A DNA stretch of 64,000 bases from a virus (Duplodnaviria; Caudoviricetes): positions 42,333-106,332 of the IMG/VR virus record IMGVR_UViG_3300033074_001909; one strand, written 5' to 3'. How positions within the stretch are numbered: position 1 is the stretch's first letter; every line of letters starts with the position of its first letter. Under the pieces are notes generated by a model. That model saw nothing but the letters and a program-made list of their open reading frames with translations, did not search any database and was not told the origin of the DNA. Both the position numbers and the translations under genes were made by a program. Of this stretch, positions 9,458-64,000 are shown in pieces.

Positions 9458-9970
9458 ATGCCTCTTTACATTGGCTCCGACAACTCGGTGATCCTCGACA
9501 AACTCGCAGACGACGCCAACGGCCAATACATCAACGACGCGGATCTGTCCTTCACGCTGTACCGCCAGCGGGCTCAAGATGGCGTGATGACTGTCGGTTC
9601 GGCGTCACTGTCCTCGGATACAGCGGCCTTCGTGGCTGGCGACGTGGGCAAGTCGATCATCGTGCCGGGCGCCGGACCTTACGGCAGCGATTTGCAGACG
9701 ACGATCTCCGCCGTGGTATCCGCCACGCAAGCGACGCTGGCCGCTGCCGCTTCCACGGCGGTGACCTACGCGCACTTTCTGGTGTCGATACCCGACGCGA
9801 AGGATATCACGATGGATTACGTGGCCAGCAGCAACGGCCGCTACATCGGCATCTTGCAATCGACGGTCACACTGGGGCTCGACACGTACACGTTGGTAGT
9901 GGATATCGACGGCGGCATTGGGCGCATCGATCAACGGCAAGTGCAGTTGCCCGCTGTGTATCGTGGTTGA
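9458..9970 (+). CDS. Hypothetical protein (putative virion)
   Basis: RBS AGGAG; operon context. Confidence 0.55.
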   Translation: MPLYIGSDNSVILDKLADDANGQYINDADLSFTLYRQRAQDGVMTVGSASLSSDTAAFVAGDVGKSIIVPGAGPYGSDLQTTISAVVSATQATLAAAASTAVTYAHFLVSIPDAKDITMDYVASSNGRYIGILQSTVTLGLDTYTLVVDIDGGIGRIDQRQVQLPAVYRG

Positions 9971-10068
9971 CGAATTTGCGGTGCGGAGTAGACTGGCTGG
10001 CGAAACGGGCTCCTCGACCAGAGGCCCCGTCAGGATCAGGCAGTACCTGATTTGGACGGGGCTTTTTT
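9967..10068 (+). promoter_or_regulatory. Promoter + conserved motif + terminator
   Basis: TTGACG-16 nt-TAGACT; GGCTCCTCGACCAGA at 10008-10022; GCCCCGTC...GACGGGGC then T6. Confidence 0.65.
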
Positions 10069-10087
10069 CATGCGCGGTGACAGAATT

Positions 10088-10426
10088 ATGTCCATGACGG
10101 AAGCCTCGGGACCGGTCAAGCACGTCAATATTTCTGCATCCGCCTCCGGCGTGACGTCGCTCGTCAGCGCGGTCGCGAGTCATAAAATCCGCGTCCTGGG
10201 GATGGTGCTCAATAACACCGATGCCAGTACGGCCGTGAACGCGACCATCGAGGACGAGGACGGTGGCAATCTGATTGGCCCGCTGCGGCTGGCGTCGGGA
10301 GCCACGGTCACGCTGCCAGCCAGCGGACTGGGATATGGAGACACGCCCACCGGCAAAGGTCTGGCCATCCTCTTAGGAGGAGCCCAAGCCGTCGGTGGAT
10401 CACTCACTTATCAGGTAATCAAATAA
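10088..10426 (+). CDS. Hypothetical beta-rich protein
   Basis: ATG at 10088 within ORF 10052..10426. Confidence 0.55.
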   Translation: MSMTEASGPVKHVNISASASGVTSLVSAVASHKIRVLGMVLNNTDASTAVNATIEDEDGGNLIGPLRLASGATVTLPASGLGYGDTPTGKGLAILLGGAQAVGGSLTYQVIK

Positions 10427-16929: not shown

Positions 16930-17994
16930 ATGACCACGACACGGAGCGAACAACTGTTCGCCATCGTCGACCGATTCAACCAAATCCATCGCGACTGGGC
17001 GGAGTTCGACACGAACAATCCCGAGCCCACGGAGTTGTACTGGCGCGCGCTGCAGGCCGTGCTGGATACGTTCGAAGGGGGCGACCTGCCAGCGGACTGC
17101 CGCCCCATGGCCGCCGCCGTCTACAAACTGGCCCAAGAGCGGGCCCGTTACGATGCCTCCGGGATGACCACGGTGCCGCAGTCGCTGTTTGCCGCGCGCG
17201 AGGAACTGGAGCGGGTAGCCCGGGCCGCACGCTCGCCGCTTGAGCGTCCCCATCGGGAAACTATTCAGGAACTGGCCAAGCAGAACGTCCCCCATGAGCA
17301 GATTGCCCGTATTTGGGGCCTGCGCCGCCCGGACGGTACGGGCCGGGCCGACCTCGTCCAGCAGGAACTGAATCAGCCCGGTTCGGTGATCGGGCCCAAC
17401 TATGTGCATCCCGAGGACCGCATGGCGCATGACCAAGTGCTGGTCGAGCGCCGCAACTGGCAGGCTTTGGAGGTGCTCAGCCAGAAGGAGCAGGAACGGA
17501 TCGAGGCGGATCAGAAGCCCTGTCCCGAGACGCCGCGGGAACTGTGGCTGATTGGGGTCAGCACGGCGCAGGCGGCGAGGATGTTGCGGCAGCCGCAAGA
17601 GCAGGTGGCCCGCCTGTGGGACGAGTTCGAACGGGAAAAGGTCGCGATTCAGACGGCGCAGGAGCGCCCGGCGCCCGTAGCGCCGCCCGCACCGGCGGTG
17701 GTAACTCCGCCGCCGGTGGCCGAAGCGGCCACGGCCGATCCGCTGGACGACATGCTGGGCGCAGCCGGCGACAGTCCCTACGCGCAGTTTGACGGCTGGA
17801 GCGAGCAGGAACTGCGGATCGAAGCCAAACGCCTGGGAATTCGCCTGCGAGGCCGCTTCACGCGTGAAACGCTGATGGATCGCATTTTGGCCGCGGATCC
17901 CACGGCAGAATTGGTGGATGACGACAGCGTCGCGGGCGTCGATGAGTTCGACCACGAGGGCGTGACGGTCGGCGAGACGGAGGAACCAACGTAA
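16930..17994 (+). CDS. Hypothetical protein with C-terminal HeH/Rho-N-like motif
   Basis: 'WSEQELRIEAKRLGI..TRETLMDRI'. Confidence 0.55.
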   Translation: MTTTRSEQLFAIVDRFNQIHRDWAEFDTNNPEPTELYWRALQAVLDTFEGGDLPADCRPMAAAVYKLAQERARYDASGMTTVPQSLFAAREELERVARAARSPLERPHRETIQELAKQNVPHEQIARIWGLRRPDGTGRADLVQQELNQPGSVIGPNYVHPEDRMAHDQVLVERRNWQALEVLSQKEQERIEADQKPCPETPRELWLIGVSTAQAARMLRQPQEQVARLWDEFEREKVAIQTAQERPAPVAPPAPAVVTPPPVAEAATADPLDDMLGAAGDSPYAQFDGWSEQELRIEAKRLGIRLRGRFTRETLMDRILAADPTAELVDDDSVAGVDEFDHEGVTVGETEEPT

Positions 17995-22559: not shown

Positions 22560-22573
22560 TTGGCTCCGCATTC

Positions 22574-22628
22574 GTTGAATGCCCGCGCAGTGGCTTCGTT
22601 GCTGCGAGTACAGGTCGACCCACGCCTT
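22574..22628 (+). CRISPR. Solitary Cas12m-type repeat + 20-nt guide-length segment (plus strand)
   Basis: GTTGAATGCCCGCGCAGTGGCTTCGTTGCTGCGAG at 22574-22608 (stem CGCAGT/GCTGCG kept), then TACAGGTCGACCCACGCCTT. Confidence 0.75.
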
Positions 22629-22808
22629 TGGGCAAGAGCCAAGCCTCTGCGCGGGCACTTCGACCGGTTGGGACGAGTTCTGCGCAGCCCAAATCCGGAA
22701 CGCTCGCAGAAACAAAGCCCCTGCGCGGGCACTTCGACTTGTCGACAACCTGGATCCGGTCGAGCACCGGCTCTCGCAGGAACAAAGCCCCTACGCGGGC
22801 ATCATCGC
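22629..22808 (-). CRISPR. Orphan mini-array: 3 repeats, 2 spacers (34 and 38 nt)
   Basis: Repeats at 22773-22808, 22703-22738 and 22629-22664 are reverse complements of the main-array repeat, e.g. GTCGAAGTGCCCGCGCAGGGGCTTTGTTTCTGCGAG. Confidence 0.9.
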
Positions 22809-25559: not shown

Positions 25560-25604
25560 GGCACCTCGTTCCGAGGCCCGGGAGTCACTCCTTGGGCCTT
25601 TTTT
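25560..25604 (+). terminator. Conserved motif + intrinsic terminator ahead of the portal gene
   Basis: GGCACCTCGTTCCGA, then GGCCCGGGAG...CCTTGGGCC and T6. Confidence 0.65.
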
Positions 25605-25614
25605 GTTGGGAAAG

Positions 25615-28600
25615 ATGAGCATGACCACCACGCAACCAGGCGGGCAGCGGATCGGCGGACAGACCTACATGCCCGGGCAGATGCTGCCCGAACGCTATCG
25701 CCGCGTGCTGGAGCCGTCCGACCGGCCCCGCGATCCCGCCGTCCGTGATCCGGATCTGGCTCCCAACTTAGGCCGCCATACCGTCCCGCACATCATCACC
25801 TTCCAGGGGCTGGTCACCTCCCTAGCCCGGGCCTATCGCAATCCAGACGAGGCCTTCCGACACAGCGTCGAAAACGCCCACATGATGCTGACGGACCCGA
25901 CAGTGAGCGGGCCCTTGCACGCGCGGCAGATGATGACGGCGCTGCTCCAGTGGTCGGTGGAAAGCGAGGACGACAAAGATTCACAGCTCAAAGAAGCGGC
26001 CAGCCAACTCCAGAAAGTCCTGGAACGGACGCCGCGGTTCGCTGAACTGCGCCGGTGGCTGCTGGAAGCTATCTGGTATGGTCGCGCGGCCAGCCAGCAC
26101 GCGATCGGATTCCACCGCGATCGCTTCGGCGTGCGACGCAGGGTGATCAAGAAATGGCTGCCGATCTCTGGCGACAAGCTTCTCTTCCGCTACGACGACG
26201 GGAGCGGGGAGTTCGACCCGGATCAGATTGGCGTGCGGGTCAGCCCGGGACTCGGCCGCGAGGATATCATCGCCGGGCGGCGCAAACTCGAGGCCACAAC
26301 CGACGGCATGGGCTACTTCCTGGAGCCCTGGGAGCGTCGGCACTGGGCGGTCCACAAGCACATGATCCGCGACGGGGAATTCGAGGATCCACTCAGCGCA
26401 GGGCAGGTGCATGGCGTCGGCCTGCGGCACTTTCTCTATTGGGTCTGGTATCAGAAGCAGGAGGCTATGGCGCAGCTCGCCGAGGTGCTCGACCGTACTG
26501 GCGCGGGGATCACCATCTACTATTACCCCGTCGGGAATCAGGAAGCGAAAACCCAGGTGGAAAAGGTGGCCCGCGAGCAGGCGCACACCAACGTGCTGGT
26601 GATGCCGTTCGACCCGGCCAGCACAGGCGGCGACCCGTATTCGATTCAACAAATCCCGCCCAACGTAGCCGGCCTGCAGGCCCTCCAGGACATCGTGGAC
26701 GGTTATTTCGGCGACATGATCACGCGGGCCATTCTGGGTCAGACGCTGTCCAGCAAACCCTCCGCAGCGGGCATGAATACGGGCGTCTCGGATCTTCAGA
26801 AAGACTCCCTGTTCCATATCGTGCGATACGACGCGGTCAATCTCCAGGAAACCATCACGCGGGAGATCCTGTTGCCGCTGCGGGACTTCAACCTACCGAA
26901 GTTCCGCAACGTGGATTTCTTCTTCAAAATCTCGACCAAAGTCAGCGCGCCGCAGGAAGAACTGGCCGCCATTTATCAGGCCTGGCAGATGGGCACCAAA
27001 ATCCGCGTCCAGGATCTCTTCCAGAAGCTCGACATGGCCATGCCGGACAAAGACGACAAGGTCGTGTTTAACCCGCAGATTGTGTCAGCCATTCAGCAGG
27101 TCGAGAGCGCCCCGATGGGTGGTCTCGCCCCGCCCGGTGGCGCCGGGCCTCAGCCTCCCGGCGCCACCCCATTTCCACCCGGTGCTGCGGAAGGCACCCC
27201 TACAAGTGAGGGCGGGGGCCAAAATGAACCCCCGCCCATAGATAGAGGGGGTGCCAGCGGCCAACCGGAGCAACTGGATAAGGCCGAAAGCCCCGAGCAG
27301 GAACGCCGGAAGTTGTTTGGCCCGATCCTGTACGGTAAGCGCGAGGAGTATCTGGAGCGGATCAGGGAAGCGGTCGAGAACACCGAGCCCAACCCCACCG
27401 AGGCCCAGCGCGAGGCCGGCAATTATCGCAAGGGCGTGGTGCATTGGCGGGGTTTAGAAGTGGTGATCGAGACGCCCAAGGGTCAGCGGCGGCGCCCGGA
27501 ATGGCCAGCTCTGCGGGCGCATTACGGCTACATCCGCCGGCATTACCACACGGGCGAGCAACGGCTAGTCACCAGCGAGCCGTGCGCCGACGGCGACCAT
27601 CTGGATATCTTCTTGGGGCCACAGCCCGAAAGCGACATCGTGTTCGTGATCGACCAAGTGACGGCCGACGGAAAGTTCGACGAGCACAAGTGTATCCTGG
27701 GCACGACCAACAAGCGGGACGCCCGGGCGCTGTACCTGTCGAACTATGCGGACGGGTGGAAGTGCGGTCCGATCCGGGGCATGACGATCGAGACGTTCAA
27801 GCACTGGCTCGAGCACGGAGACCTGACGAAGCCGGTGGCGCGCCAGAAACTCAGGTACGCGCGGCAATTGTCGCTGTTTGACGATACGTTCTCGCTGGTG
27901 CGCAAGCCGAGATCACTCTTTGACGAAGGATCGCATCCCCGGGCAAAAGAGCATGTGGAGATCCAGGGCAAGGAATACGAAGGCGGGCAATGGATCCCGA
28001 AAGACGCGGCGGTGGAAGCCACGCCAGCGGCCCAAGAGAAAATCGAGGTAGTGGACAAGTCCACGGGCGAAACCGAACCACTTGAGCAAACGCTGAAACC
28101 TGGGGATAATGCCACCGCATCGCCACCGAGTCCCGAGGACGACTCCCATGACCAACCACGATCCGACGCAGAATTCGCACCTGGAGAGCCAGATTCCACC
28201 GGAGGAGATGGAGATCGAGGACGACCTGACGACGGAGAATCTGGCGGCGCAGGCGATTTGGGAGCAAATCCAGTTGGACCGTCAGAAGAACGGATCGTCA
28301 CCTCACGCCAACAGCACACGCGCCCAGCGGATCGATCCCTCGTTCCAGAGCGACTTCGACAACATCTAGACGACCACCAGCAGGAAGGCGTCGCCAAGGC
28401 GATTGCCTCTCTTCGGGATGTTGGTGGCTTCCTTAACTCCGACGGGACTGGCGTCGGTAAGGCGCAGCCGCTCGACGAACCGATTTTGACTCCCACCGGA
28501 TGGAAGCGGATGGGCGATCTGCAAATCGGCGATGAAGTCATTTCAGCCGACGGATTTCCCACCAAAATCAGTGGCGTCTATCCGCAAGGGCACCTGGAAG

Positions 28601-31600
28601 TCTATCGCGTCACATTCAGCGATGGATCGTGGACCGAATGCTGTGCAGAGCATTTATGGCAAACCCACACATGGTCTGATCGCCGGAATTTATCTCGCGG
28701 TTTGCGTCGCCAGGGCAATGTCCGCTCTCTACGTGAAATTGCGAGTAGTTTGGTAGCTAACGGAGGTCAATCCAACCATTCAATTCCCATGACAGCCCCC
28801 GTCGCATTTCAGCCGCGACAAATCTTGCTTGACCCGTATGTTTTGGGCGTGCTGTTGGGTGACGGAGGAATGTCCCGACAAGCATCGTTGACAGTAACCA
28901 GCGTTGACCAGGAAATTCTAGATAGCGTAGGGCATACCTTGCCTACTGGAGTGCGATTGCGACGCATTGGAAATAGTCCTAGCTACTCGATCACCACGGA
29001 TCGTCGCGCAACGAAGTCAGGCAATCCAATGGTGACGGAATTACGCCGTTTGGGACTTCATGGACCAGGAAAAACATCGGATACAAAATTCATCCCGGAA
29101 GACTACAAATTCAATTCCGTTGACGTTCGATTGTCCGTCTTGCAGGGACTAATGGATACAGACGGGACAATTGATAAGCGTGGCACAAGTTGCGTTTACA
29201 CGACAACTTCACGGAAATTGGCTGATGACATTGTGTTTCTTGTGCAGTCGTTGGGGGGAACCGCAAGAATCCAAAGCAAGCAACCAACGTATTGTTACAA
29301 CGGTGATAAACGAGACGGCAAGCAAGCGTACAACGTCACCTTGTGTCTTCCTCCTGAATTCAAGCCATTCCGGTTGTCAAGGAAGTCAGGACGAGTAGTT
29401 CCTAAGTCTAAGTACGCACCTAGGCGATACATCAAGACGGTGGAGCAAATCGGCAGTAAACCTTGTCAGTGCATTGCAGTTGAAAATAAGTCGCATTTGT
29501 ATCTGACACGCGGATTCATTGTCACGCACAATACCCGGCAGCTTCTCGCCACCGCGCAGCACTATCTAGATCAGGGTAAGAAGGTCATTGTCATCGCGCC
29601 TAAGGGCGTGACCAAAGCCGACTGGAAGAAAAAGACCGTCACCGGTTCCTGGCAGAATGACAGCCAGGCCATGGGTGTGCCGATCCACGTGACGCGGGAC
29701 GAGATCGACCCCAAGGCGGTCAATATCTCGAGCTACGAGAATCTCGCGAAGCTCAAACGGCAGGTCGACGACAACACGATCGTGATGTTCGACGAGGCGC
29801 ACTCGCTGAAGAATCGCGATTCCGCCCGCTCCAAGCACGGCGTGGAAATGGCCAATACCGCGGCGGCGGTACTCTTTGCCACGGCCACTCCCGTCGACAA
29901 GGTCGAGCACCTGCACTACCTGGACCGAGCCGGTGCCTTTGGCGGGCGATATTACGGCCAGACCTACGAGCAATTGGGACTGGAGCAAGTCGAGCAGAGC
30001 ATTGGCGGCGGCCAGACGGTCAAGAAGTGGCAGATTCGTCCTGGCGTCAAGGCATCCGAGGTCATGCGTCGCCTGTCGGGGCTATTCACGCGATTGACGG
30101 CCGATGGCCGGATGGTCAAGCGTGAAATCAGCATGAAGGACGTGCCGGTATCGGTACGGCAGGTGAAACTGCCTCCCGAGGCCCACGAAGTCCTGGATCG
30201 CATTGAGGAGGAACTGACTGGCACCTCGGCCAATGAGGGCCTGGAACGAGCTCGCATCCTGATGCACCAGCGGCGACAGCAGGAACCGTATAAAGTCGCC
30301 CCCGCAGTCGACGAAGCGCTGCAGGCGCTCGACGCGGGCCGGCAGGTGGTGATTTTCGCGTCACGGGTCAATGAATCGCAGGTTGGCGGAGAGGATGACG
30401 ACGACGAAAACGCCATCAAGTCCGAAGGAACCATGAAACTCCTGCGGGAAGAGCTCGAGCGGCGTGGCATCAAGCCGGCCGACATCGCGGAGATTCACGG
30501 CGGGGTCTCCAAGACGAAGATTCCGAAAGAAATGGACCGCTTCCAAGCTGGTCAGGCTCGCGTCGTGATCGCCACGGTGGAGAGTGGCGGCACGGGCATT
30601 AACCTGGACGACACGCGAGGAGACCGGCCGCGGACGCTGATCATGATGACGGCGCCATTTTCGGCGGTGGAAAACGTCCAGGCGGCTGGCCGAGTGTGGC
30701 GGCTCAAGACGAAGAGCATTCCCGAGATCAAGTATCTGTTCGGGGATACGGAAGTAGACGATTGGAATTCGGCGCTGATCAGCAAGAAGATGCGGACGCT
30801 GGGCGCGTCGGTAAGCGGCCAGATTGGCAAACTCGACGTGAACAATCTGAACGAGTCGGACGCGATCGATTTCGAGTCCGAAGAGCCGTACGAGTGGCAA
30901 TATCCCGGGGAGGGTGAACCGCCCTCGGCGTCGTTCACTAAACTGGATAGCGGCGAGTGGGGAATGCGAGTGGATGGCCGGGTGCGACCGGGCGAAACGG
31001 TCGAGATCGCGAAGCGGGACGGATCGAAAACGCGGCGGGTAGTCGGGAAGATCGTCAAGGCGGGCGCCGGATTCACGATCGCGACGTTGAGCGATGCGGC
31101 GCCAGCCCGCGAGCAATTGCCGCCGCCTCCACCACCGCCGCCGTCGCCGCCTCCCCCCAAAGCGCCCACGGCGAAGCCCAGTCATCCGTTCGAGGCACTG
31201 GCGGCGTGGTCGCAGCCGAAAAAGGTGAACACGGCGCAAGGGCCACGGATGGTGCGCAGCGCGCGCCCGACGGACAAATTCTGGAAAGAGTGGGGCAAGG
31301 ACAAGGAGCGATTGAAGCGTCAGGGGATCAGCGTCTCGAAGTACCAAGGAGAATGGCAGATTTCCTGGTGGCAGGAGGCACCTGATCGCAACGCGAAACG
31401 CTACGCCAAGGACATCCTGCCCGGCGGACTCGCCGACGACGCGCCACCGGTGGATGCCGCAGCCTTAGCCCGCGGCATCGCCATCGAGATGGAGCACACA
31501 GACGATCCGGCGATCGCCAAGGAAATCGCGGCCGACCATCTGGCGGAATTCCCGGACTACTACGACGCCTTGGAACAAATGGAAGCGTCGCTCCGGTCGC

Positions 31601-32058
31601 GTGCGTCGAAACTGGGAGATCGCCTGCGCTACGCCAAGGACTTAGCAGACCTGTCGGCCGAACCGCTCACCTACGCCTGCGCCTGCCGGCAGCGGTACGC
31701 GAAGGGTGACGAGTCGAGTCACGATCACGAACTGGGGCATGTAAGCGACCTGGAATTCGGGCAGGTGAGCGAGACGCCGGCATGGCGTGAGGCGTGGCAG
31801 CAAGAACTCGCCAGCGGCGAACTGAACGAGGAATCCAGCGAGAATCCAGCCGAGGGGCTGGCCGAGTATGTGGCGCTGGTGCTGCAGTCCCCGAAGCAGG
31901 CTCGCGACGAGTACCCGGTTTGCTGGGAATCGCTCGAGATGGCCGGCATGATCGAAGACGTGGCAAGCGACGGTCCAGCCCGTTATGCTTACGACGAAAG
32001 CCAGCACCCTCGTGACGATGATGGCATGGTTCAAGAATACTCCAAATTAACAGGTTGA
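25615..32058 (+). CDS. Portal (DUF935/Mu gp29-like) fused to polyvalent-protein domains: inorganic PPase-like, Strawberry-notch-like SF2 helicase with intein, DUF5661-like
   Basis: Portal 'LEAIWYG', 'ILGQTL'; PPase-like 'GNYRKG..IETPKG..HYGYI..DGDHLD..FDEHK'; helicase 'DGTGVGK|TRQ', 'DEAH', 'TATP', 'QAAGRVWR'; 'EMEHTDD..AKEIAADHL.E.PDYY'. Confidence 0.8.
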   Translation: MSMTTTQPGGQRIGGQTYMPGQMLPERYRRVLEPSDRPRDPAVRDPDLAPNLGRHTVPHIITFQGLVTSLARAYRNPDEAFRHSVENAHMMLTDPTVSGPLHARQMMTALLQWSVESEDDKDSQLKEAASQLQKVLERTPRFAELRRWLLEAIWYGRAASQHAIGFHRDRFGVRRRVIKKWLPISGDKLLFRYDDGSGEFDPDQIGVRVSPGLGREDIIAGRRKLEATTDGMGYFLEPWERRHWAVHKHMIRDGEFEDPLSAGQVHGVGLRHFLYWVWYQKQEAMAQLAEVLDRTGAGITIYYYPVGNQEAKTQVEKVAREQAHTNVLVMPFDPASTGGDPYSIQQIPPNVAGLQALQDIVDGYFGDMITRAILGQTLSSKPSAAGMNTGVSDLQKDSLFHIVRYDAVNLQETITREILLPLRDFNLPKFRNVDFFFKISTKVSAPQEELAAIYQAWQMGTKIRVQDLFQKLDMAMPDKDDKVVFNPQIVSAIQQVESAPMGGLAPPGGAGPQPPGATPFPPGAAEGTPTSEGGGQNEPPPIDRGGASGQPEQLDKAESPEQERRKLFGPILYGKREEYLERIREAVENTEPNPTEAQREAGNYRKGVVHWRGLEVVIETPKGQRRRPEWPALRAHYGYIRRHYHTGEQRLVTSEPCADGDHLDIFLGPQPESDIVFVIDQVTADGKFDEHKCILGTTNKRDARALYLSNYADGWKCGPIRGMTIETFKHWLEHGDLTKPVARQKLRYARQLSLFDDTFSLVRKPRSLFDEGSHPRAKEHVEIQGKEYEGGQWIPKDAAVEATPAAQEKIEVVDKSTGETEPLEQTLKPGDNATASPPSPEDDSHDQPRSDAEFAPGEPDSTGGDGDRGRPDDGESGGAGDLGANPVGPSEERIVTSRQQHTRPADRSLVPERLRQHLDDHQQEGVAKAIASLRDVGGFLNSDGTGVGKAQPLDEPILTPTGWKRMGDLQIGDEVISADGFPTKISGVYPQGHLEVYRVTFSDGSWTECCAEHLWQTHTWSDRRNLSRGLRRQGNVRSLREIASSLVANGGQSNHSIPMTAPVAFQPRQILLDPYVLGVLLGDGGMSRQASLTVTSVDQEILDSVGHTLPTGVRLRRIGNSPSYSITTDRRATKSGNPMVTELRRLGLHGPGKTSDTKFIPEDYKFNSVDVRLSVLQGLMDTDGTIDKRGTSCVYTTTSRKLADDIVFLVQSLGGTARIQSKQPTYCYNGDKRDGKQAYNVTLCLPPEFKPFRLSRKSGRVVPKSKYAPRRYIKTVEQIGSKPCQCIAVENKSHLYLTRGFIVTHNTRQLLATAQHYLDQGKKVIVIAPKGVTKADWKKKTVTGSWQNDSQAMGVPIHVTRDEIDPKAVNISSYENLAKLKRQVDDNTIVMFDEAHSLKNRDSARSKHGVEMANTAAAVLFATATPVDKVEHLHYLDRAGAFGGRYYGQTYEQLGLEQVEQSIGGGQTVKKWQIRPGVKASEVMRRLSGLFTRLTADGRMVKREISMKDVPVSVRQVKLPPEAHEVLDRIEEELTGTSANEGLERARILMHQRRQQEPYKVAPAVDEALQALDAGRQVVIFASRVNESQVGGEDDDDENAIKSEGTMKLLREELERRGIKPADIAEIHGGVSKTKIPKEMDRFQAGQARVVIATVESGGTGINLDDTRGDRPRTLIMMTAPFSAVENVQAAGRVWRLKTKSIPEIKYLFGDTEVDDWNSALISKKMRTLGASVSGQIGKLDVNNLNESDAIDFESEEPYEWQYPGEGEPPSASFTKLDSGEWGMRVDGRVRPGETVEIAKRDGSKTRRVVGKIVKAGAGFTIATLSDAAPAREQLPPPPPPPPSPPPPKAPTAKPSHPFEALAAWSQPKKVNTAQGPRMVRSARPTDKFWKEWGKDKERLKRQGISVSKYQGEWQISWWQEAPDRNAKRYAKDILPGGLADDAPPVDAAALARGIAIEMEHTDDPAIAKEIAADHLAEFPDYYDALEQMEASLRSRASKLGDRLRYAKDLADLSAEPLTYACACRQRYAKGDESSHDHELGHVSDLEFGQVSETPAWREAWQQELASGELNEESSENPAEGLAEYVALVLQSPKQARDEYPVCWESLEMAGMIEDVASDGPARYAYDESQHPRDDDGMVQEYSKLTG
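27209..27235. repeat. 27-bp palindrome, copy 2
   Basis: AGGGCGGGGGCCAAAATGAACCCCCGC. Confidence 0.8.
28462..29532 (+). mobile_element. Class-3-type intein (357 aa) with LAGLIDADG endonuclease in the helicase P-loop
   Basis: Starts with Ala (AQPLDEPILTPTGW); 'EHLW', 'CQCIAV', 'VTHN|T' give the Trp-Cys-Thr signature; 'LGVLLGDG', 'LQGLMDTDG'. Confidence 0.9.
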
Positions 32059-46529: not shown

Positions 46530-47279
46530 ATGACCGCCCCGCAATTATTTGCCAGCTACTGGCCCGAGGGACCGCATCGCTGCTACTACTGCGGCGGGCG
46601 ATGCGACGAGACGCATCGAGCTGCTGATCTGGTCCAGTCGTCGTTTACCGCACGTGATACCGTGGCTGGCGGTGAGTACGTGTGCCCTGGCTGCATCGCT
46701 GCGATGGACGAGAGGGCCACGATTACGCTGGCCGACGGCGAAGTGCGCGAAGGCCAGCGGGTCCGCTGCTACTCCTGGGTCATCACTGCCGAAGCGGCGA
46801 TCGCTGCCACCAAAGCTCATCGCGCGTGGCTGACAGGAGCGTGCCTGTCGCCTCCAGAACCGCCCTACGTCATCTCGATCAGCGACAGCGGGCAACGGCA
46901 CCTGCTGTATCGTGCCGTCGTATGCCATTCTCGCGAGATCATTACCGCCACTCTGGAGGGCGAGCGGGTAACATTCACACCCTATGAGCTTGACGAGCGG
47001 TTGACGCTGTGTCGCAAACTGATCGCGGCAACCGGCAAGCCGGCTCTGTCCGAAGCACCGACTGCACGATTCGGCATGTCGGTAGTCTCGCATCACGACG
47101 ACGAATCACTGATCTCCACGTGGCTGGAATGTCGCGAGCAACCGCTGTCTCGCCTGGCGGCGTGGCTCTCGCCTCCCAAGGAGGAATGCTTACTTGAGTT
47201 CCCAGCACCAGCAGCTCCCGCCCCCACTGCCTGTGCTCGACACCGAGCAGTTCAGGCAACGTTTAGCTGGCTTGATTGA
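46530..47279 (+). CDS. csf1: Type IV CRISPR Csf1 (Cas8-like large subunit)
   Basis: CxxC...CxxC zinc finger; 'PPEPPYVISISDSGQRHLLY'; operon context. Confidence 0.8.
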   Translation: MTAPQLFASYWPEGPHRCYYCGGRCDETHRAADLVQSSFTARDTVAGGEYVCPGCIAAMDERATITLADGEVREGQRVRCYSWVITAEAAIAATKAHRAWLTGACLSPPEPPYVISISDSGQRHLLYRAVVCHSREIITATLEGERVTFTPYELDERLTLCRKLIAATGKPALSEAPTARFGMSVVSHHDDESLISTWLECREQPLSRLAAWLSPPKEECLLEFPAPAAPAPTACARHRAVQATFSWLD

Positions 47280-47667
47280 CCAGCGATCCGAAGTGGACGC
47301 CGAAGATTTCGCCAGCGTGGCGGCGTGCGCTATCCATTTTGTCTCGTCGCTGCCGATTGTGTTCGGCGAGCAGCTCGAGCGCACCACACTGTGGGATAAG
47401 ATCGGCGCCGCCCTGGATACCGCTTACGCCAAGACCGCCGCCGATGATTGCGACTTCTTTATCAGTCGCGTGCTGGAGTCGATCCTGGCTTCTCCGGCGG
47501 CCGTCGCTCGCTGTGAGGCCATCGGCCAGGTGATAACGTGGCTCTCCGCTGCGCCGACTGAGATGCGGCACGCGTGGCTGCAGTACATCGCCACGCACCG
47601 CTATGCCGTGCTCGTACGCGCTCGCATGGCCTGGGAGCAGCAGAAGGAGGCTCGCGCCAATGCCTGA
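47194..47667 (+). CDS. cas11: Type IV-B small subunit (Cas11-like)
   Basis: Small helical protein between csf1 and csf2; RBS AAGGAGG. Confidence 0.6.
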   Translation: MSSQHQQLPPPLPVLDTEQFRQRLAGLIDQRSEVDAEDFASVAACAIHFVSSLPIVFGEQLERTTLWDKIGAALDTAYAKTAADDCDFFISRVLESILASPAAVARCEAIGQVITWLSAAPTEMRHAWLQYIATHRYAVLVRARMAWEQQKEARANA

Positions 47668-48544
47668 GACCTATACGATCCTCTGCGTGAGTGAAGCCGC
47701 CTCGCCAATCACGCACATGAGCGGCAGCGCCGGCAATGAGGCGATTATCGCTCGTGCGCCCGTGATGACGGATCGCGGGAAACTGTGGATACCATACCTC
47801 TCAGGTAATGCCCTGCGCCACCGTTGCGTGCGAGATCCAGGCGTGGATTTCCTTTTGGATCTTTACGAACTGCGAGGCAAACTTACACTGCCGCAGCTCA
47901 ATTTCCTGCGGCACGGCGGAAATCTCACGGAGTCCACCGCACACGAGAACACGGCCCGCATCGCCGAGATGAAACGCACTTGGCCGCTACTGCGATTGCT
48001 GGGTGGCTCGTTGCCAAACCAGATCCTGGCCGGCAGCCTGCAAGTCTGGCGTGGTGAACTGGTGTGCGAGGAAAACCGCCAATACCTGGCCACGCTCGGA
48101 GACTGGCTGCCCACGCGGCGACTCAAGGCTGCCGAGGAGTTCATCGGGAACTACCAGTACACGCGCGGCGATGCCGCGAAGTCCGGCGAGGCTCAGGCGG
48201 AGGAGGATCGCGAGAGCAATCTGATGATCTTCGCTGGCCAGCAGGTCAATCGTGGCTCGCTGTTTGTGCATGGCTTCGTGGCGCCTCACGCGTCGCGCGT
48301 CGAACTGGGCGCGCTGCTGCTGTCGCTCCGACTCTGGCAGTCCCGCGGCGGGACGATCGGCGGACAAGCGGCGCGCGGCCACGGCCGGCTGGCGATGTCC
48401 CTGGTCGGTGCGATCGACCAGTCGTGTGTGGACGAGTACGTCGAGTACGCGATCAGCGTGCGAGATGCGGCGATCGCGTGGCTTGAGGACTGCTTTGCGA
48501 AGCGAGCCGACAAGCCAGCGAAGACAAAGAAGGTGAAGGCATGA
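47660..48544 (+). CDS. csf2: Type IV CRISPR Csf2 (Cas7-like RAMP)
   Basis: 'SPITH', 'PYLSGNALRH', 'LRLLGG', 'IGGQAARGHG'; RBS AAGGAGG. Confidence 0.85.
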   Translation: MPETYTILCVSEAASPITHMSGSAGNEAIIARAPVMTDRGKLWIPYLSGNALRHRCVRDPGVDFLLDLYELRGKLTLPQLNFLRHGGNLTESTAHENTARIAEMKRTWPLLRLLGGSLPNQILAGSLQVWRGELVCEENRQYLATLGDWLPTRRLKAAEEFIGNYQYTRGDAAKSGEAQAEEDRESNLMIFAGQQVNRGSLFVHGFVAPHASRVELGALLLSLRLWQSRGGTIGGQAARGHGRLAMSLVGAIDQSCVDEYVEYAISVRDAAIAWLEDCFAKRADKPAKTKKVKA

Positions 48545-49206
48545 GCCTGCTCGTGATCGCGCACCTATCGTCGCCGCTGGCCGGTGATGCGCCGATGCTG
48601 GACGGACTGCTCGAGTTCGAGATGTCGCAGAGACTCGGTGCGGCGTATAAGGTCCGCCGCGATCAGCCTGCACCGCCCGCCGGAGCGATCCATATTCCGA
48701 TGCTGCGGCGCGGTATCGGCGGTTGGAGTGTTCCGCTCTGCTCGTCACCGATCTACACCGCCGAGAGTGATCGGCATGAGTACATCGGCAAGCGGCTGGC
48801 GGTCGAGCACGCCAGTGATTTACGCGAGGATGCACGGCTGGTCGTGGCGATGGGCAACGCGACCTACAAGTCATATCGCCTACCGCTGCGAGTGAGGAAT
48901 GTGTCACGCGTGGCGTGGTTCTGCGAGGGGCATCGATCGCCGATTTTGAAGCTGCTCAAATCGGTACACGCGATCGGCCGGAAGCGGTCAGATGGATACG
49001 GTCGCGTGGCGCGATGGACTGGCGAGAACGTGGATGGCAATCATCACTGGTACGGCGAGAGCGAGCACGGCCCGGTGCTCATGCGACCGCTGCCGTTTGG
49101 CGACTGGCTGCCGCGCAGCCTGCTCGGCGCGAAGCGAGATTTCGGTGCGGTCGTCGCGCCGTACTGGCATCCTGATCGCTATGCGGAGATTGTGGTGCCA
49201 TGCTGA
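48541..49206 (+). CDS. csf3: Type IV CRISPR Csf3 (Cas5-like RAMP)
   Basis: 'LDGLL', 'IGRKRSDGYGRV', 'MRPLP', 'PYWH'. Confidence 0.85.
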   Translation: MSLLVIAHLSSPLAGDAPMLDGLLEFEMSQRLGAAYKVRRDQPAPPAGAIHIPMLRRGIGGWSVPLCSSPIYTAESDRHEYIGKRLAVEHASDLREDARLVVAMGNATYKSYRLPLRVRNVSRVAWFCEGHRSPILKLLKSVHAIGRKRSDGYGRVARWTGENVDGNHHWYGESEHGPVLMRPLPFGDWLPRSLLGAKRDFGAVVAPYWHPDRYAEIVVPC

Positions 49207-49931
49207 TTCGCACTGCTCGCCACACGGCCGCAGACCTGGCATTGTGGGAGTCGCTCGAGGACGCCGACATTCTGAGGCAGGACGTGGCCGCCTATCGCGC
49301 ACGGTACGCTGAGGCGCTGCACGCGATCGCCGCGTTTACATCCGCAGGCGAGTGCTACGCCGGCATCAGTTGGGGGAAGGACTCTACCGTGCTGGCTCAT
49401 CTGATCCAGTGCGTCGCGCCTGACACGCCACTAGCCTGGACGCGAGTAGAACCGATCGCCAATCCAGACTGTGTGCTCGTGCGAGATGCGTTCCTGCGAT
49501 TGCATCCGCACGCGAACTATCACGAGATCACGGAGTGGTGTGAGTGGCGCGATGGAGAGTGGCACGCCACTGGCACGCTCGAAAGCGGCATCGCCAAGTG
49601 CCGAGAACGATGGGGAGAGCGGACGATACTCGGTATTCGAGCCGAGGAGAGCACCCAGCGTGGGTTCCGCATTTGGCGCCACGGACTATCGACGGATCGG
49701 TCGTGTGATCCACTGGGACGCTGGCGCATCGAGGACGTGATGACCTGCCTGGCAATCGAGGGACTGCCGGTGCATCCGGCTTACGCCATGCTGGGAGGCG
49801 GGCGCTGGCCGCGAGAGCAACTGCGGGTCTCGTCGCTCGGCGGTCGTCGCGGCGATGGCCTCGGGCGAGCAGAGTGGGAGCGCGAGTATTACGGCGATGT
49901 GGTGCGACGGCTGGCCATGACGGACACCTGA
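49200..49931 (+). CDS. PAPS-reductase (CysH)-like protein of the type IV-B system
   Basis: PP-loop 'SWGKDS', 'GIRAEES..R', 'PLGRW...DV', 'LPVHPAY'. Confidence 0.85.
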   Translation: MLIRTARHTAADLALWESLEDADILRQDVAAYRARYAEALHAIAAFTSAGECYAGISWGKDSTVLAHLIQCVAPDTPLAWTRVEPIANPDCVLVRDAFLRLHPHANYHEITEWCEWRDGEWHATGTLESGIAKCRERWGERTILGIRAEESTQRGFRIWRHGLSTDRSCDPLGRWRIEDVMTCLAIEGLPVHPAYAMLGGGRWPREQLRVSSLGGRRGDGLGRAEWEREYYGDVVRRLAMTDT

Positions 49932-59847: not shown

Positions 59848-59955
59848 CTCGCAGAAATCAAGCCTCTGCGCGGGCACTTCAACGATCCCGACCGGGAATA
59901 CGTGATGTCCGGACTTGACCTCGCAGACACAACGCCTCTGCGCTGGCATTCGCGC
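59848..59955 (-). CRISPR. Orphan mini-array: 2 repeats, 1 spacer (36 nt)
   Basis: Repeats at 59920-59955 (GCGCGAATGCCAGCGCAGAGGCGTTGTGTCTGCGAG) and 59848-59883 (GTTGAAGTGCCCGCGCAGAGGCTTGATTTCTGCGAG). Confidence 0.9.
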
Positions 59956-60148: not shown

Positions 60149-60343
60149 ATGCGCTGGACAATCCGCGATCTATTCTACGTGCTGACGATCACCGCCATGG
60201 CCATCGCCTGGACGCTGGACGCCCGACAGAACTACGGGTCACCGACCGTCGGTAAAGTGTGCGAGGAGTGCGGCAGCGATGGCAACGCCCACACCCTGCG
60301 CTGCCCCGTGATTGCTCGTCTTATTCTTCACTCGGAGAACTGA
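60149..60343 (+). CDS. Small membrane peptide of a Planctomycete-type 'R(F/W)(S/T)IRDL' family
   Basis: MRWTIRDLFYVLTITAMAIAW followed by CxxC. Confidence 0.55.
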   Translation: MRWTIRDLFYVLTITAMAIAWTLDARQNYGSPTVGKVCEECGSDGNAHTLRCPVIARLILHSEN

Positions 60344-60345
60344 TC

Positions 60346-61422
60346 ATGAAACGTCGCGCCTTTACTCTCGTCGAGCTGCTAGTGGTCATCGCCATTATCG
60401 GGGTGCTGGTCAGCTTGCTCTTGCCGGCCGTGCAGGCGGCTCGCGAAGCGGCCCGCCGTATGTCGTGCTCGAATAACCTCAAGCAGATTGGACTAGCCGT
60501 CCATAACTTCGTGTCCGCCCGCGACACCATGCCCCGCTCCGGGGAACACCTCGTGGAAGTGGGCAACGTGACCTACAAGACGCAATGCTTTCACGGCCCG
60601 CTGTTGGTGCTGCTGCCCTACCTGGAGCAGTCCGCGCTGTTCGACAAGTTCGACTTGACGGTGCGCTACAACGAGGGAGCTAACCTGGCCCTGGTGCCGC
60701 TGGGAGCCGGTGGCGCCGCCACGATCAAGGCCTACCAGTGTCCCACCAATCCCGAGCGGTGGATTACGGACAAAGAGGGATTCACGGGCACCGATTACGC
60801 GCCGCTCCCTTACGTGGAAATCAACGCTGCGGCGGCCGCGGCCACCGGCTTGCCGGCTGGCTTGCATCCGGCAGCGCTCACGTCCCACCCGTACCGGCCG
60901 GCATACTACAAGACCTACTCGGGCGCTCATCCCAGCATCAGCCCTAGCAAAGCCTTTCAACTGAAAACGTCGGCCGAGCTCGCCGCGCTGGGCAATTTCA
61001 ACATCTACTTCGGTGGCGCCACGTTCGCGGACATCACCGACGGATCGAGCAATTCCATCCTGGTGTACGAGGACACCGGCCGCAACGAAAAGATGGACGG
61101 CACAGGCAGCCCGTCGCCAAATAACTACCTGGATCCAGTCGACAATCAGCCCCGCCGGCACTGGCGGTGGGCGGAGCCCGACAGTACGAGCGGCTGTTCC
61201 AAGCAGATCAACAACAACCGCACCCCGCGGGGTGGCCCGCCCACCTGCCCTTGGACGGCACACGATTGTGGCCCCAATAACGAATGGTTTTCCTTCCATC
61301 CAGGTGGCGCGCAAGTCGCCATGGCCGATGGCTCGGTCCGCTTCGCCAGCGAAACCACGGACCTGAAAGTCGTGTTTGCTCTGGGCACCCGCAAAGGCGG
61401 AGAATCGGTGACCCTGGATTAG
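60346..61422 (+). CDS. DUF1559 prepilin-type N-terminal cleavage/methylation protein
   Basis: 'AFTLVELLVVIAIIGVLVSLLLPAVQAAREAARR..C.NNLKQIGLA', 'DGSSN', 'HPGGAQVAMADGSVRF'. Confidence 0.95.
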   Translation: MKRRAFTLVELLVVIAIIGVLVSLLLPAVQAAREAARRMSCSNNLKQIGLAVHNFVSARDTMPRSGEHLVEVGNVTYKTQCFHGPLLVLLPYLEQSALFDKFDLTVRYNEGANLALVPLGAGGAATIKAYQCPTNPERWITDKEGFTGTDYAPLPYVEINAAAAAATGLPAGLHPAALTSHPYRPAYYKTYSGAHPSISPSKAFQLKTSAELAALGNFNIYFGGATFADITDGSSNSILVYEDTGRNEKMDGTGSPSPNNYLDPVDNQPRRHWRWAEPDSTSGCSKQINNNRTPRGGPPTCPWTAHDCGPNNEWFSFHPGGAQVAMADGSVRFASETTDLKVVFALGTRKGGESVTLD

Positions 61423-61424
61423 GA

Positions 61425-61453
61425 TTTACAAGAAGCAATTCATATTGCACAAT
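61425..61453 (+). promoter_or_regulatory. Promoter of the cas12m-like gene with internal palindrome
   Basis: TTTACA-17 nt-CACAAT; GCAAT-TCAT-ATTGC overlaps the spacer; RBS AGGAGG. Confidence 0.55.
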
Positions 61454-61488
61454 GGTCGCTTTCTGTAACCCATTCCAGGAGGAAGGCC

Positions 61489-63507
61489 ATGCCCATCGTC
61501 TACAGTTATCGCGCCAAGGTCCGGGAGCAGGATCGGCCGTTGATTATCGGGCAATTGCGAGCGGCCCATCGCTACCGCAATCGCTTGTGCGAGATCGAAT
61601 TGACGCGTCGTCAGCAGGTCGATGCGGCGTTGCGAGAAGTCTGCCCGCGCCTGCTGGAAGTGGAAGCGGAACTGGCGGCCCTCGACGGCGAATTGACCGC
61701 CGAATACGAGCGGGTCAAGAAGGCCAACGTGCAGGAGCGATCCCGCAAGCGTCCTCCCCAGGAGCAGCAGCAGCGGATCGCGGCCCTCAAGGCGCAACTC
61801 AAGGCCTTGCGAGCGGAACGCAAGACGCTGCGCACGGGTCTGTTCGGCATGTCCGAGCGAGTAGACAAATTGCGCAAGGCCGCTGCGGAATTGCATGGCA
61901 AGCCGGCGGAGACGGTAGCCACGATGCAGGGTCTGCTGTGGGAGGAGGGTTGCGACGGTTTGCGAGCGGCCCTGGCGGCGCGCCTGACAGCCGAGGCCGG
62001 CCAGAAGCGAGCGCAGGACGACGCGATCCGCGAGGAGTTGGCCAAACTTGTCGAACAGGAGAGCAACACGCCCGCCGCGGCGCGCCGCCTGGCGGAGATC
62101 GACACCGCCGCCAAGCAGGCCGCCAAGGACGCGCGACATCAAAGCGGTCTGTACTGGGGAACGTACCTGACGGTGGAGGAGGCGGCCGCGTCTTTCCGCA
62201 CGGGGGCGCCGCCGCGGTTCAAGCGATGGGAAGGACGGGGCCTGCTGGGTGTGCAATTCGTGGGCGGACTGTTGGTGGAAGATGCGTTGCGGGGTGCCAC
62301 CAAGTTTACCATCCGGGATGGCGCCAAGCCGAAGTGGCGCGAACTGCAAATGCGGATCGGCCAGCAAGAGGACGAATGTGCCACGCTGGATGTGATCTAC
62401 GATCGACCCCTGCCGGAGGATGCCACGATCAAGTGGGCCAAGCTGGCCTATCGCAAGGTGGCCAGCCAGGATCACTTCTATATCAATTTCATTCTGGATC
62501 GGCCCGGAGGGTTCCCACGGGATGATCGGGCCACGGAAGGGACGGCAGCGGTCGACATTGGCTGGCGCAGGCTGGACGACGGCAGCATTCGGGTGGCGTA
62601 CTGGATGGGCTCGGACGGCGAGGAAGGCTCGCTGGAGATCCCGGCCGGGCAGGCCCAGCGGCTACCGCGATGCGACACGCTCAATTCGGTGCGGTCGCTG
62701 CTGTTTGACGGCGCGCGGAGCGTACTGGCTCGCTGGCGAAAGATCGAGCAAGAACGCGACTCCGAACCGCCCGAGTGGCTGCGCGGGCAAGCCATGTGGT
62801 GCAAGTTCGAGATCCAAGGGGCGCCTGCCGGTCGTCAGGATCAATTGCGGCGGTGGCTGACCCATTTCCAAGGGCTGTGTGCCGCCTGGAGTGACATTCC
62901 GGCCATGCCGGAATGGCTGCAGACCTTGACCGACCACGCACACGCCTGGAAGTCGCATGGCAAGCTGGCCCAGGTAGTCTACGAGTGGCGCAATCAGCGG
63001 TTTGCGGGCGATGAGCACCTGTACGGGGTGTTTGAGGCGTGGCGGCAGCAGGACAAGCACCTGTGGGAGTGGACCGCGCATAACCGGCAGCGGTACTTAA
63101 ACTGGCGATTGGATTGCTACCGGGTGTTTGCCAGGATGCTGGCTCGGCGGTATCGCACGCTGGTGATCGAGGACGTGGATTGGCGGGCGTTTTCGGTCAG
63201 GCCGACGGCTGATGAAGCGGACGAAATGAAACTGGCCCGTGCCCGCAAGCACGTCACGGCGCCCAGCCTGCTGGAGAATTGCTTGCGGTATGCGTTCGGC
63301 GCGGCTGACACCAAGGACTTGCCAGCCAAGAACATGACGGCCACGTGCGCGGTATGCGGGGAGTTGTGCGGCGAGACCGACCGGTGGAAACTGGTGCTGG
63401 AGTGCTCGCAGTGTCGATCGAGTTTCGATCAGGACCGTAACGCGTGCCGTAACCTGTTGCGAGCGGCGGGGTGCGATGAAAAGTCCGCCAGTCTCTCGCA
63501 AGGCTGA
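61489..63507 (+). CDS. cas12m: Type V CRISPR effector, Cas12m-like (V-M, formerly V-U1)
   Basis: 'QLRAAHRYRNRL', coiled coil, 'GLYWGTY', 'RWEGRGLLGVQ', 'DRPLPEDATI', RuvC 'AVDIGWR' (D356), 'VIED' (E561), CxxC..CxxC, 'DQDRNA' (D649); adjacent array. Confidence 0.85.
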   Translation: MPIVYSYRAKVREQDRPLIIGQLRAAHRYRNRLCEIELTRRQQVDAALREVCPRLLEVEAELAALDGELTAEYERVKKANVQERSRKRPPQEQQQRIAALKAQLKALRAERKTLRTGLFGMSERVDKLRKAAAELHGKPAETVATMQGLLWEEGCDGLRAALAARLTAEAGQKRAQDDAIREELAKLVEQESNTPAAARRLAEIDTAAKQAAKDARHQSGLYWGTYLTVEEAAASFRTGAPPRFKRWEGRGLLGVQFVGGLLVEDALRGATKFTIRDGAKPKWRELQMRIGQQEDECATLDVIYDRPLPEDATIKWAKLAYRKVASQDHFYINFILDRPGGFPRDDRATEGTAAVDIGWRRLDDGSIRVAYWMGSDGEEGSLEIPAGQAQRLPRCDTLNSVRSLLFDGARSVLARWRKIEQERDSEPPEWLRGQAMWCKFEIQGAPAGRQDQLRRWLTHFQGLCAAWSDIPAMPEWLQTLTDHAHAWKSHGKLAQVVYEWRNQRFAGDEHLYGVFEAWRQQDKHLWEWTAHNRQRYLNWRLDCYRVFARMLARRYRTLVIEDVDWRAFSVRPTADEADEMKLARARKHVTAPSLLENCLRYAFGAADTKDLPAKNMTATCAVCGELCGETDRWKLVLECSQCRSSFDQDRNACRNLLRAAGCDEKSASLSQG

Positions 63508-63628
63508 GGCGGTAAGTAGTTGCGGCGAGAATAGGGATGACGGCGAGGGGCGGTCGTGAGGCGGCAAGCGACCACCTCTCGCAAAGATCGCGGTGGCGTA
63601 TGTCGTGTCCATGGTTTACGTACGTGCC

Positions 63629-64000
63629 GTTGAAGTGCCAGCGCAGAGGCGTTGTTTCTGCGAGACCGGATAATTACACATCGGTCGAGATCGAGCAGGC
63701 GGGTTGAAGTGCCCGCGCAGAGGCGTTGTTTCTGCGAGGGGTGCCGATTAGCCCATCGCTTGACCGGCCTACGGATGTTGAAGTGCCAGCGCAGAGGCTT
63801 TGTTTCTGCGAGTCGACCGTCTGGGAGGATGAGCCGCGGGGTGCCGTCGTGTTGAAGTGCCCGCGCAGAGGCTTTGTTTCTGCGAGCCTACGAGGACCTA
63901 GAGACGTACGTCGTCTCATCGACGTTGAAGTGCCCGCGCAGAGGCTTTGTTTCTGCGAGCGTTCTGGATTCGAGCAGCTGGGCGGACAGATCTTCGTGGA
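63629..64000 (+). CRISPR. CRISPR array, at least 5 repeats (36 nt) with 37-38-nt spacers, probably continuing past the window edge
   Basis: Repeats at 63629-63664, 63703-63738, 63777-63812, 63851-63886 and 63924-63959; consensus GTTGAAGTGCCCGCGCAGAGGCTTTGTTTCTGCGAG. Confidence 0.97.

Follow-up and report, generated by a model that had tools for sequence, protein, structure and literature searches.

A phage-borne D-E-D Cas12m with two helical inserts and CRISPR RNA scaffold units scattered over the phage genome

Cas12m effectors (type V-M, formerly V-U1) were divided into four clades on the basis of their RuvC triads by Wu et al. (2022, as cited in PMC10442227), the D-E-D triad being placed in clades 3 and 4, and Omura et al. 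(2023; PMC10442227) speculated that these two clades might cut DNA. The same paper reports that a conversion of HDD to DED in Cas12m2 failed to restore cleavage, and assigns to the pocket of this protein a role in the Mg2+-mediated holding of the non-target strand. Bigelyte et al. (PMC11013384) assayed four D-E-D orthologues (MsCas12m and three others) as well as H-D-D and N-D-D ones; none had nuclease activity on double-stranded DNA (dsDNA), and all orthologues tested bound DNA in a manner dependent on a protospacer adjacent motif (PAM). A D-E-D Cas12m encoded by a phage, MvCas12m of the myxophage MV-1, was reported as the first of its kind in a September 2026 preprint (bioRxiv 10.64898/2026.09.14.751636). 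Here we analyse a cas12m gene (61489..63507, + strand, ATG start, 672 aa) found in a 64,000-nucleotide stretch of viral DNA, hereafter the window, which corresponds to positions 42,333 to 106,332 of the IMG/VR record IMGVR_UViG_3300033074_001909, a single contig of 106,332 bp classed as a virus (positions are those of the window unless marked as contig). Our analysis makes it probable that this gene encodes a D-E-D type V-M effector of a ~106-kb tailed phage, which would act as an RNA-guided, DNA-binding silencer against rival mobile elements.

Based on profile, sequence and predicted fold, the product of this open reading frame (ORF) is a genuine Cas12m, and neither a TnpB nor a Cas12f. The PADLOC profile Cas12u1, named after the old designation of type V-M, matches it with an E-value of 1.2e-75 (253 bits), and a phmmer search against PDB sequences (E<1e-3) returned Cas12m chains only, the best being 23vw (1.6e-40), followed by GoCas12m (8pm4), MmCas12m2 (8hhl, 8hio) and UnCas12m4a. 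This closest solved chain, 23vw, itself carries a D-E-D triad and was deposited as 'DNA-binding protein Cas12m'. An AlphaFold2 model built from an alignment of 146 relatives (predicted local distance difference test, pLDDT, 94; predicted template modelling score, pTM, 0.89; a single-sequence model with a pLDDT of 43 was discarded) has a bilobed fold with a WED domain, a coiled-coil REC domain, a RuvC domain with a helical insertion and a zinc-ribbon TNB domain. The four best Foldseek matches of this model are all Cas12m structures (8hhl, 8pm4, 8hio and 8hhm), with E-values down to 3.6e-22 and template modelling (TM) scores of 0.60-0.70 (best 0.63/0.70). The Cas12m-like motifs that the original prediction had noticed along the protein are thus borne out by PADLOC, by the PDB sequence matches and by Foldseek, and the structure prediction that it had called for groups the protein with Cas12m, not with TnpB or another V-U clade.

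The RuvC residues D356 (in AAVDIGW), E561 (VIEDVD) and D649 (FDQDRN) align with H317, D485 and D579 of MmCas12m2 and with the D, E and D of 23vw, and they form the combination that, along with N-E-D and D-N-D, marks Cas12m clades 3 and 4. A zinc ribbon of the form CxxC...CxxC (C620, C623, C639, C642) is also present. The protein thus shares its domain order, triad and zinc ribbon with the described D-E-D Cas12m (clades 3 and 4, including the four orthologues of PMC11013384 and 23vw), but it is phage-encoded and ~95-130 aa longer owing to two helical inserts. MmCas12m2 (8hhl, 8hhm, 8hio) and GoCas12m (8pm4) have the same fold, crRNA (CRISPR RNA) scaffold and expected mode of binding and silencing; they differ by their H-D-D triad, by an identity of only ~19-21%, by their bacterial (actinobacterial) hosts and by the lack of both inserts. 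In the AlphaFold2 model, the first insert (residues ~120-190, ~70 aa) adds four helices within the REC coiled coil, and the second (~420-472, ~50 aa) contributes two helices to the helical insertion of RuvC. Two PEWL motifs are found at residues 428 and 474, the first lying inside the second insert and the second corresponding to a family-wide P474-x-W476 motif. The triad residues, the length of 672 aa, the extra length and the two PEWL motifs given in the original prediction were all confirmed from sequence and alignment. A tandem duplication as the source of the PEWL pair was also considered and rejected: it finds no support beyond the motif itself, and 391 of 2000 shuffles score as high.

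Both inserts are common only to this protein (P0001) and to its two nearest relatives, P0002 (98% identical, from another metagenome) and P0026 (54% identical, 668 aa). All other cluster representatives are at most ~45% identical, out of 3212 retrieved by an exhaustive search at E<=1e-3, of which the nearest 173 were aligned. Relatives found in a metagenome scan for the close clade of the protein were at most 34% identical. Near-identical copies of the gene itself occur in 15 metagenome runs from wastewater, sludge and freshwater, which belong to ~11 studies, and contigs from the RNA libraries of two sludge metatranscriptomes cover parts of it, for which DNA carry-over is a possible source.

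As in the described D-E-D systems, a CRISPR array with 36-nt repeats able to form a stem and a pseudoknot lies directly after the gene, and adaptation genes are missing: Cas1 (PF01867) and Cas2 (PF09827) had no match anywhere in the 106-kb record, in a search in which positive controls were matched and which did not include Cas4. The stop codon of cas12m is separated from the first repeat by a leader of 121 nt, read from the sequence (63508..63628, + strand), and the main array (63629..64000, + strand), with spacers of 37-38 nt and a chance expectation of 0 matches, has five repeats in the window and continues past the overlap of the contig ends up to contig position 614. Nucleotides 1-76 of the contig are identical to the 76 nt ending 3 nt short of the contig end, the overlap comprising a repeat and a unique spacer (window 63922-64000; contig 1-79); the two ends of the assembly thus join inside the CRISPR array, and the ~106-kb phage genome is probably circular. 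In IMG/VR the record is entered as linear, and CheckV estimates it to be 75% complete; a related phage, whose major head protein is 45% identical, is complete at 97.5 kb and has terminal repeats. Once joined, the main array consists of 13 repeats, the last of which are degenerate, and 12 spacers.

Within the repeat, bases 14-19 pair with bases 29-34 to form a 6-bp stem located 2 nt from the 3' end, and GCC at bases 9-11 can pair with GGC at bases 20-22 of the loop. In crRNA numbering, this pseudoknot joins -28..-26 with -17..-15, with the stem extending to -3, and both pseudoknot and stem were reported at identical positions for the crRNA of PmCas12m. Across the 23 distinct repeat copies of the genome, 97.6% of the cells pair, with compensatory changes at three pairs; no shuffle out of 500 reached the observed percentage of pairing or covariation score, and slid controls paired at 30-57%. 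The Cas12m-type repeat architecture proposed in the original prediction is thereby confirmed, both by the PmCas12m positions and by covariation. The arrays of relatives carry near-identical repeats, and most of the 41 IMG/VR contigs on which relatives of the protein were found have an array directly after the gene. The sole inverted copy of the repeat lies 41 kb away in one of the scattered clusters described below (cluster C), no search for anti-repeats having been made. The repeat scaffold had no exact match in IMG/VR; in representative genomes it had 14 single matches in unrelated phyla, which we took as chance and which identified no host.

The content of the arrays differs between strains, as seen in two other metagenomes. 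The main array is much shorter in one wastewater strain, and a mini-array located upstream of cas12m (cluster D below) has ~316 nt in another strain, or roughly four more units, in place of the 39 nt that separate its two repeats here, and a different spacer in a third. This indicates that the ordinary arrays undergo turnover, the adaptation proteins presumably being provided in trans. One spacer of the main array, spacer 8 (contig 255-289), agrees at 31 of 35 positions with a site in the phage's own genome. This protospacer-like site lies on the - strand (10005..10039), between the ORFs 9458..9970 and 10052..10426, and has the 5' flank GGTACTGC. The mismatches fall at positions 4, 7, 29 and 35, two of them being in the seven PAM-proximal bases. 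On the simplest reading, this spacer was taken from, and is aimed at, a related phage, the mismatches sparing the phage itself; the site is either a sign that kin phages are targeted or one at which the phage regulates itself.

Judging from its characterised relatives, this Cas12m would process its own pre-crRNA and carry a 5' scaffold of ~28 nt followed by a guide of ~17-20 nt. Like its orthologues, it would recognise PAM-flanked dsDNA, stay bound to it, and block transcription or replication instead of cutting, while in its conserved D-E-D pocket the displaced non-target strand is probably held via Mg2+, in the same way as in the HDD pocket of Cas12m2. Since spacer 8 matches the phage itself imperfectly and the arrays vary between strains, related rival phages or other mobile elements would be the likeliest targets of the main array. 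The scattered scaffold units described next are probably a source of additional guides, in part fixed, for the same Cas12m.

These units, spread over the genome, are the more unusual feature of the phage. Using a covariance model over the 106 kb, we found 16 further full crRNA-scaffold units and one truncated copy, and no others, grouped in four clusters (A to D) that are all intergenic with respect to roughly called genes. Clusters A (contig 15385-15713, seven units) and B (contig 17645-17839, four units) lie upstream of the window; the last unit of A stops 1 nt short of an ATG, and that of B 39 nt ahead of a gene start. Cluster C (22573..22808, both strands) has three units on the - strand, two full and one truncated, with spacers of 34 and 38 nt, and a fourth unit on the + strand that faces them. 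The mini-array D (59848..59955, - strand, thus opposite to the main array) has two repeat units and a spacer of 36 nt. In the dispersed units, identity to the consensus is 85% over repeat columns 8-36, versus 42% over columns 1-7, and the latter, poorly kept columns correspond to the repeat stretch -36 to -30, which is disordered in the structure of Cas12m2 with its crRNA (PMC10442227). The changes in their stems are compensatory, which argues against plain decay. In clusters A and B, the scaffolds are followed by guides of 11-31 nt, for a reported optimum of 17 nt in Cas12m.

Compact or solo scaffold units of a similar kind were also seen in other phages carrying Cas12m homologues. A 180-kb IMG/VR phage has ~25 strongly divergent scaffolds of ~28 nt with spacers of 17-20 nt right after its cas12m homologue (L009:11800-13100). 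Solo scaffold units occur in another phage with a Cas12m homologue, complete at 103.5 kb; they include an identical pair (L033:16640-16675 and 17192-17227, - strand) whose members stand directly before the ribosome-binding sites of two paralogous genes of 162 aa, at 12 and 27 nt from their start codons. The related 97.5-kb phage mentioned above (L032:12198-12670) encodes a Cas12m 31% identical to the one studied here and has no scattered units; compared with the repeat studied here, its own repeat shows covariation in both the stem (CTCAGT/ACTGAG) and the pseudoknot (CCC/GGG). Repeat-like units located outside a normal array have been described in phage genomes as viral Cracr/crlRNA arrays (bioRxiv 10.1101/2024.10.29.618823) and as RNA anti-CRISPRs made of solitary repeat units (PMC10651486), and our phage shares with them the packing of some units in compact multi-unit blocks. 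Those elements exploit the Cas proteins of the host (reported for types I and V-A), whereas the phage studied here encodes the matching effector itself.

The scattered units raise the question of whether the system mainly serves gene control run by the phage, with hard-wired guides sending a binding-only Cas12m to host promoters or defence genes, on the model of viral Cracr/crlRNAs or TldR-type repressors. Such a role could coexist with the silencing of rival elements. It is suggested by the 16 full units and the truncated copy gathered in four intergenic clusters, in which conservation is confined to the part bound by the effector, is poor over the crRNA segment found disordered in Cas12m2 and goes with compensatory changes in stem and pseudoknot, by guide lengths that lie around the reported optimum, by the compact or solo units of other Cas12m phages and by the published precedent of viral crlRNA arrays. 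Yet the matches of the scattered guides inside the phage genome are at chance level: they amount to seeds of 10-13 nt with no common flank, and the 12/16 match of guide A1 to the -10 element of a promoter-like site before cas12m is within chance expectation. Moreover, the related phage G004 has the main array only, clusters C and D behave as ordinary, changing arrays, and clusters A and B could be decaying ones. We therefore regard gene control as an unlikely main function. No more firmly, we suggest a form in which the two roles are combined: a binding-only Cas12m would draw on two sources of guides, strain-variable arrays (main, C and D) and compact, adaptation-independent blocks (A and B), whose fixed guides would make up a built-in CRISPR interference (CRISPRi) programme against chosen host genes, such as defence genes, or rival genes in the course of infection. 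The blocks A and B, with their conserved scaffold of ~28 nt and fixed guides of 11-31 nt, may in that case be a virus-owned counterpart of the host-hijacking crlRNAs.

To return to the Cas12m as a binding-only silencer of rival elements, several observations weigh against it. External protospacers were not found, INPHARED phages giving only weak matches (E 0.2-0.7), and an exact search of IMG/VR with two spacers and the core of the self-matching site returned no match. D356, E561 and D649 are kept in the protein, P0002, P0026 and most relatives, D647 and D649 being near-invariant; this conservation indicates selection on the pocket, for whose function in D-E-D Cas12m the literature offers no explanation. 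Finally, the published negative results on cleavage concern four orthologues, none of them closer than ~40% identity, and the two clade-specific inserts could change the behaviour of the protein.

The intact and conserved triad and the inserts, which lie outside the range of published assays, could also be taken as signs of a genuine RNA-guided DNA nuclease, acting in cis or in trans, in this longer D-E-D form, which would be either a cleavage-competent Cas12m or a step from TnpB to the silencing Cas12m. The speculation of Omura et al. on DNA hydrolysis by clades 3 and 4 goes in the same direction, and so does that on nuclease activity in the preprint on the phage Cas12m of MV-1. The D-E-D triad is, however, the usual state among the nearest relatives, being found in 112 of the 173 aligned cluster representatives (others have N-A-D, N-G-D, H-S-D, H-D-D, etc.), and gives no ground to expect cutting. 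In a tree of these 173 relatives, midpoint-rooted and built without TnpB or another Cas12 as outgroup, the protein forms a fully supported D-E-D trio with P0002 and P0026, within a well-supported clade of 14 members. Because this clade includes eight N-A-D, one N-S-D and one N-G-D members, the position of the trio is nested and not basal, and the protein appears to sit amid lineages in which the triad was lost rather than at a transition from TnpB to Cas12m. The near relatives lost the triad repeatedly (NAD, NSD, NGD), and the function of the clade would therefore be independent of catalysis. Together with the four D-E-D orthologues that did not cut dsDNA, with the failed restoration of cutting in Cas12m2 and with a predicted fold far nearer to Cas12m than to TnpB or Cas12f, this makes a nuclease quite improbable, more so than phage-run gene control. 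The view of D-E-D as the mark of a cleavage-competent or intermediate form, put forward as a possibility in the original prediction, hence is not supported, and the prediction rightly warned that cleavage does not follow from an intact triad.

That the protein might be a transposon-associated TnpB, a Cas12f or another V-U protein mislabelled as Cas12m, as hinted at by a weak Pfam match to the Cas12f1-like TNB domain (E 0.005; in Pfam and NCBIfam the C-terminal zinc-ribbon region alone is matched, and weakly), by a PADLOC profile labelled Cas12f (E 2.8e-71, which we read as a labelling overlap with V-U1) and by a PHROGs label 'transposase' for the C-terminus (E 4e-4), is extremely improbable and already refuted by the fold and profile results, given Foldseek TM scores of 0.26/0.45 for TnpB (8h1j) and 0.33/0.45-0.49 for Cas12f versus 0.60-0.63 for Cas12m, a score of 12.5 bits against a cut-off of 425 for IS200_TnpB (NF038281), a length of 672 aa versus ~400 aa for TnpB, sequence matches among solved structures to Cas12m only, and the adjoining array with its Cas12m-type scaffold.

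The structural genes of the record include those of a major head protein and of a T4-type large terminase (Terminase_6N), and one in which a Mu-like portal is fused with a long polyvalent protein. The fusion is a protein of 2151 aa (25603-32058) that combines the Mu-like portal with an inorganic pyrophosphatase domain, a SNF2-type helicase, DUF5661 and a LAGLIDADG/homing-endonuclease stretch, the latter being a probable intein. The region of the head genes also contains a type IV-B-like module (46530-49931) with PADLOC matches to Csf1 (E 1.7e-60), Csf2 (3.6e-76) and Csf3 (1.7e-31), followed by a weakly PAPS-reductase-like (CysH-like) gene; the module is devoid of an array of its own. MvCas12m, which we could compare by description, is likewise phage-encoded, has a D-E-D triad, an adjoining array, no cas1, cas2 or cas4 and no identified targets; it differs by its length of 610 aa and its myxobacterial phage, and neither scattered repeat units nor a type IV-B module were reported for it.

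The gene directly upstream of cas12m (60259-61422) encodes a prepilin-like protein of the DUF1559 / H-X9-DG family, which is typical of Planctomycetota. This hints at a host among the Planctomycetota. A scan for promoters and terminators gave no signal above chance; a promoter-like site, TTTACA-17-CACAAT, was noticed at 61425-61464, just 5' of cas12m.

Collectively, these results describe an ordinary member of the known Cas12m family that represents a new, divergent lineage with two inserts, and since D-E-D Cas12m have already been described and are non-cutting as far as tested, it is neither a missing link nor a new nuclease. The finding adds a divergent, insert-bearing and phage-borne lineage to Cas12m, and a small natural DNA binder of this kind could interest tool developers. 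It also provides one more case of scaffold units scattered in a phage genome beside a matching effector that is binding-only. If this recurring pattern corresponds to fixed guides, phages would run CRISPR-interference programmes of their own.

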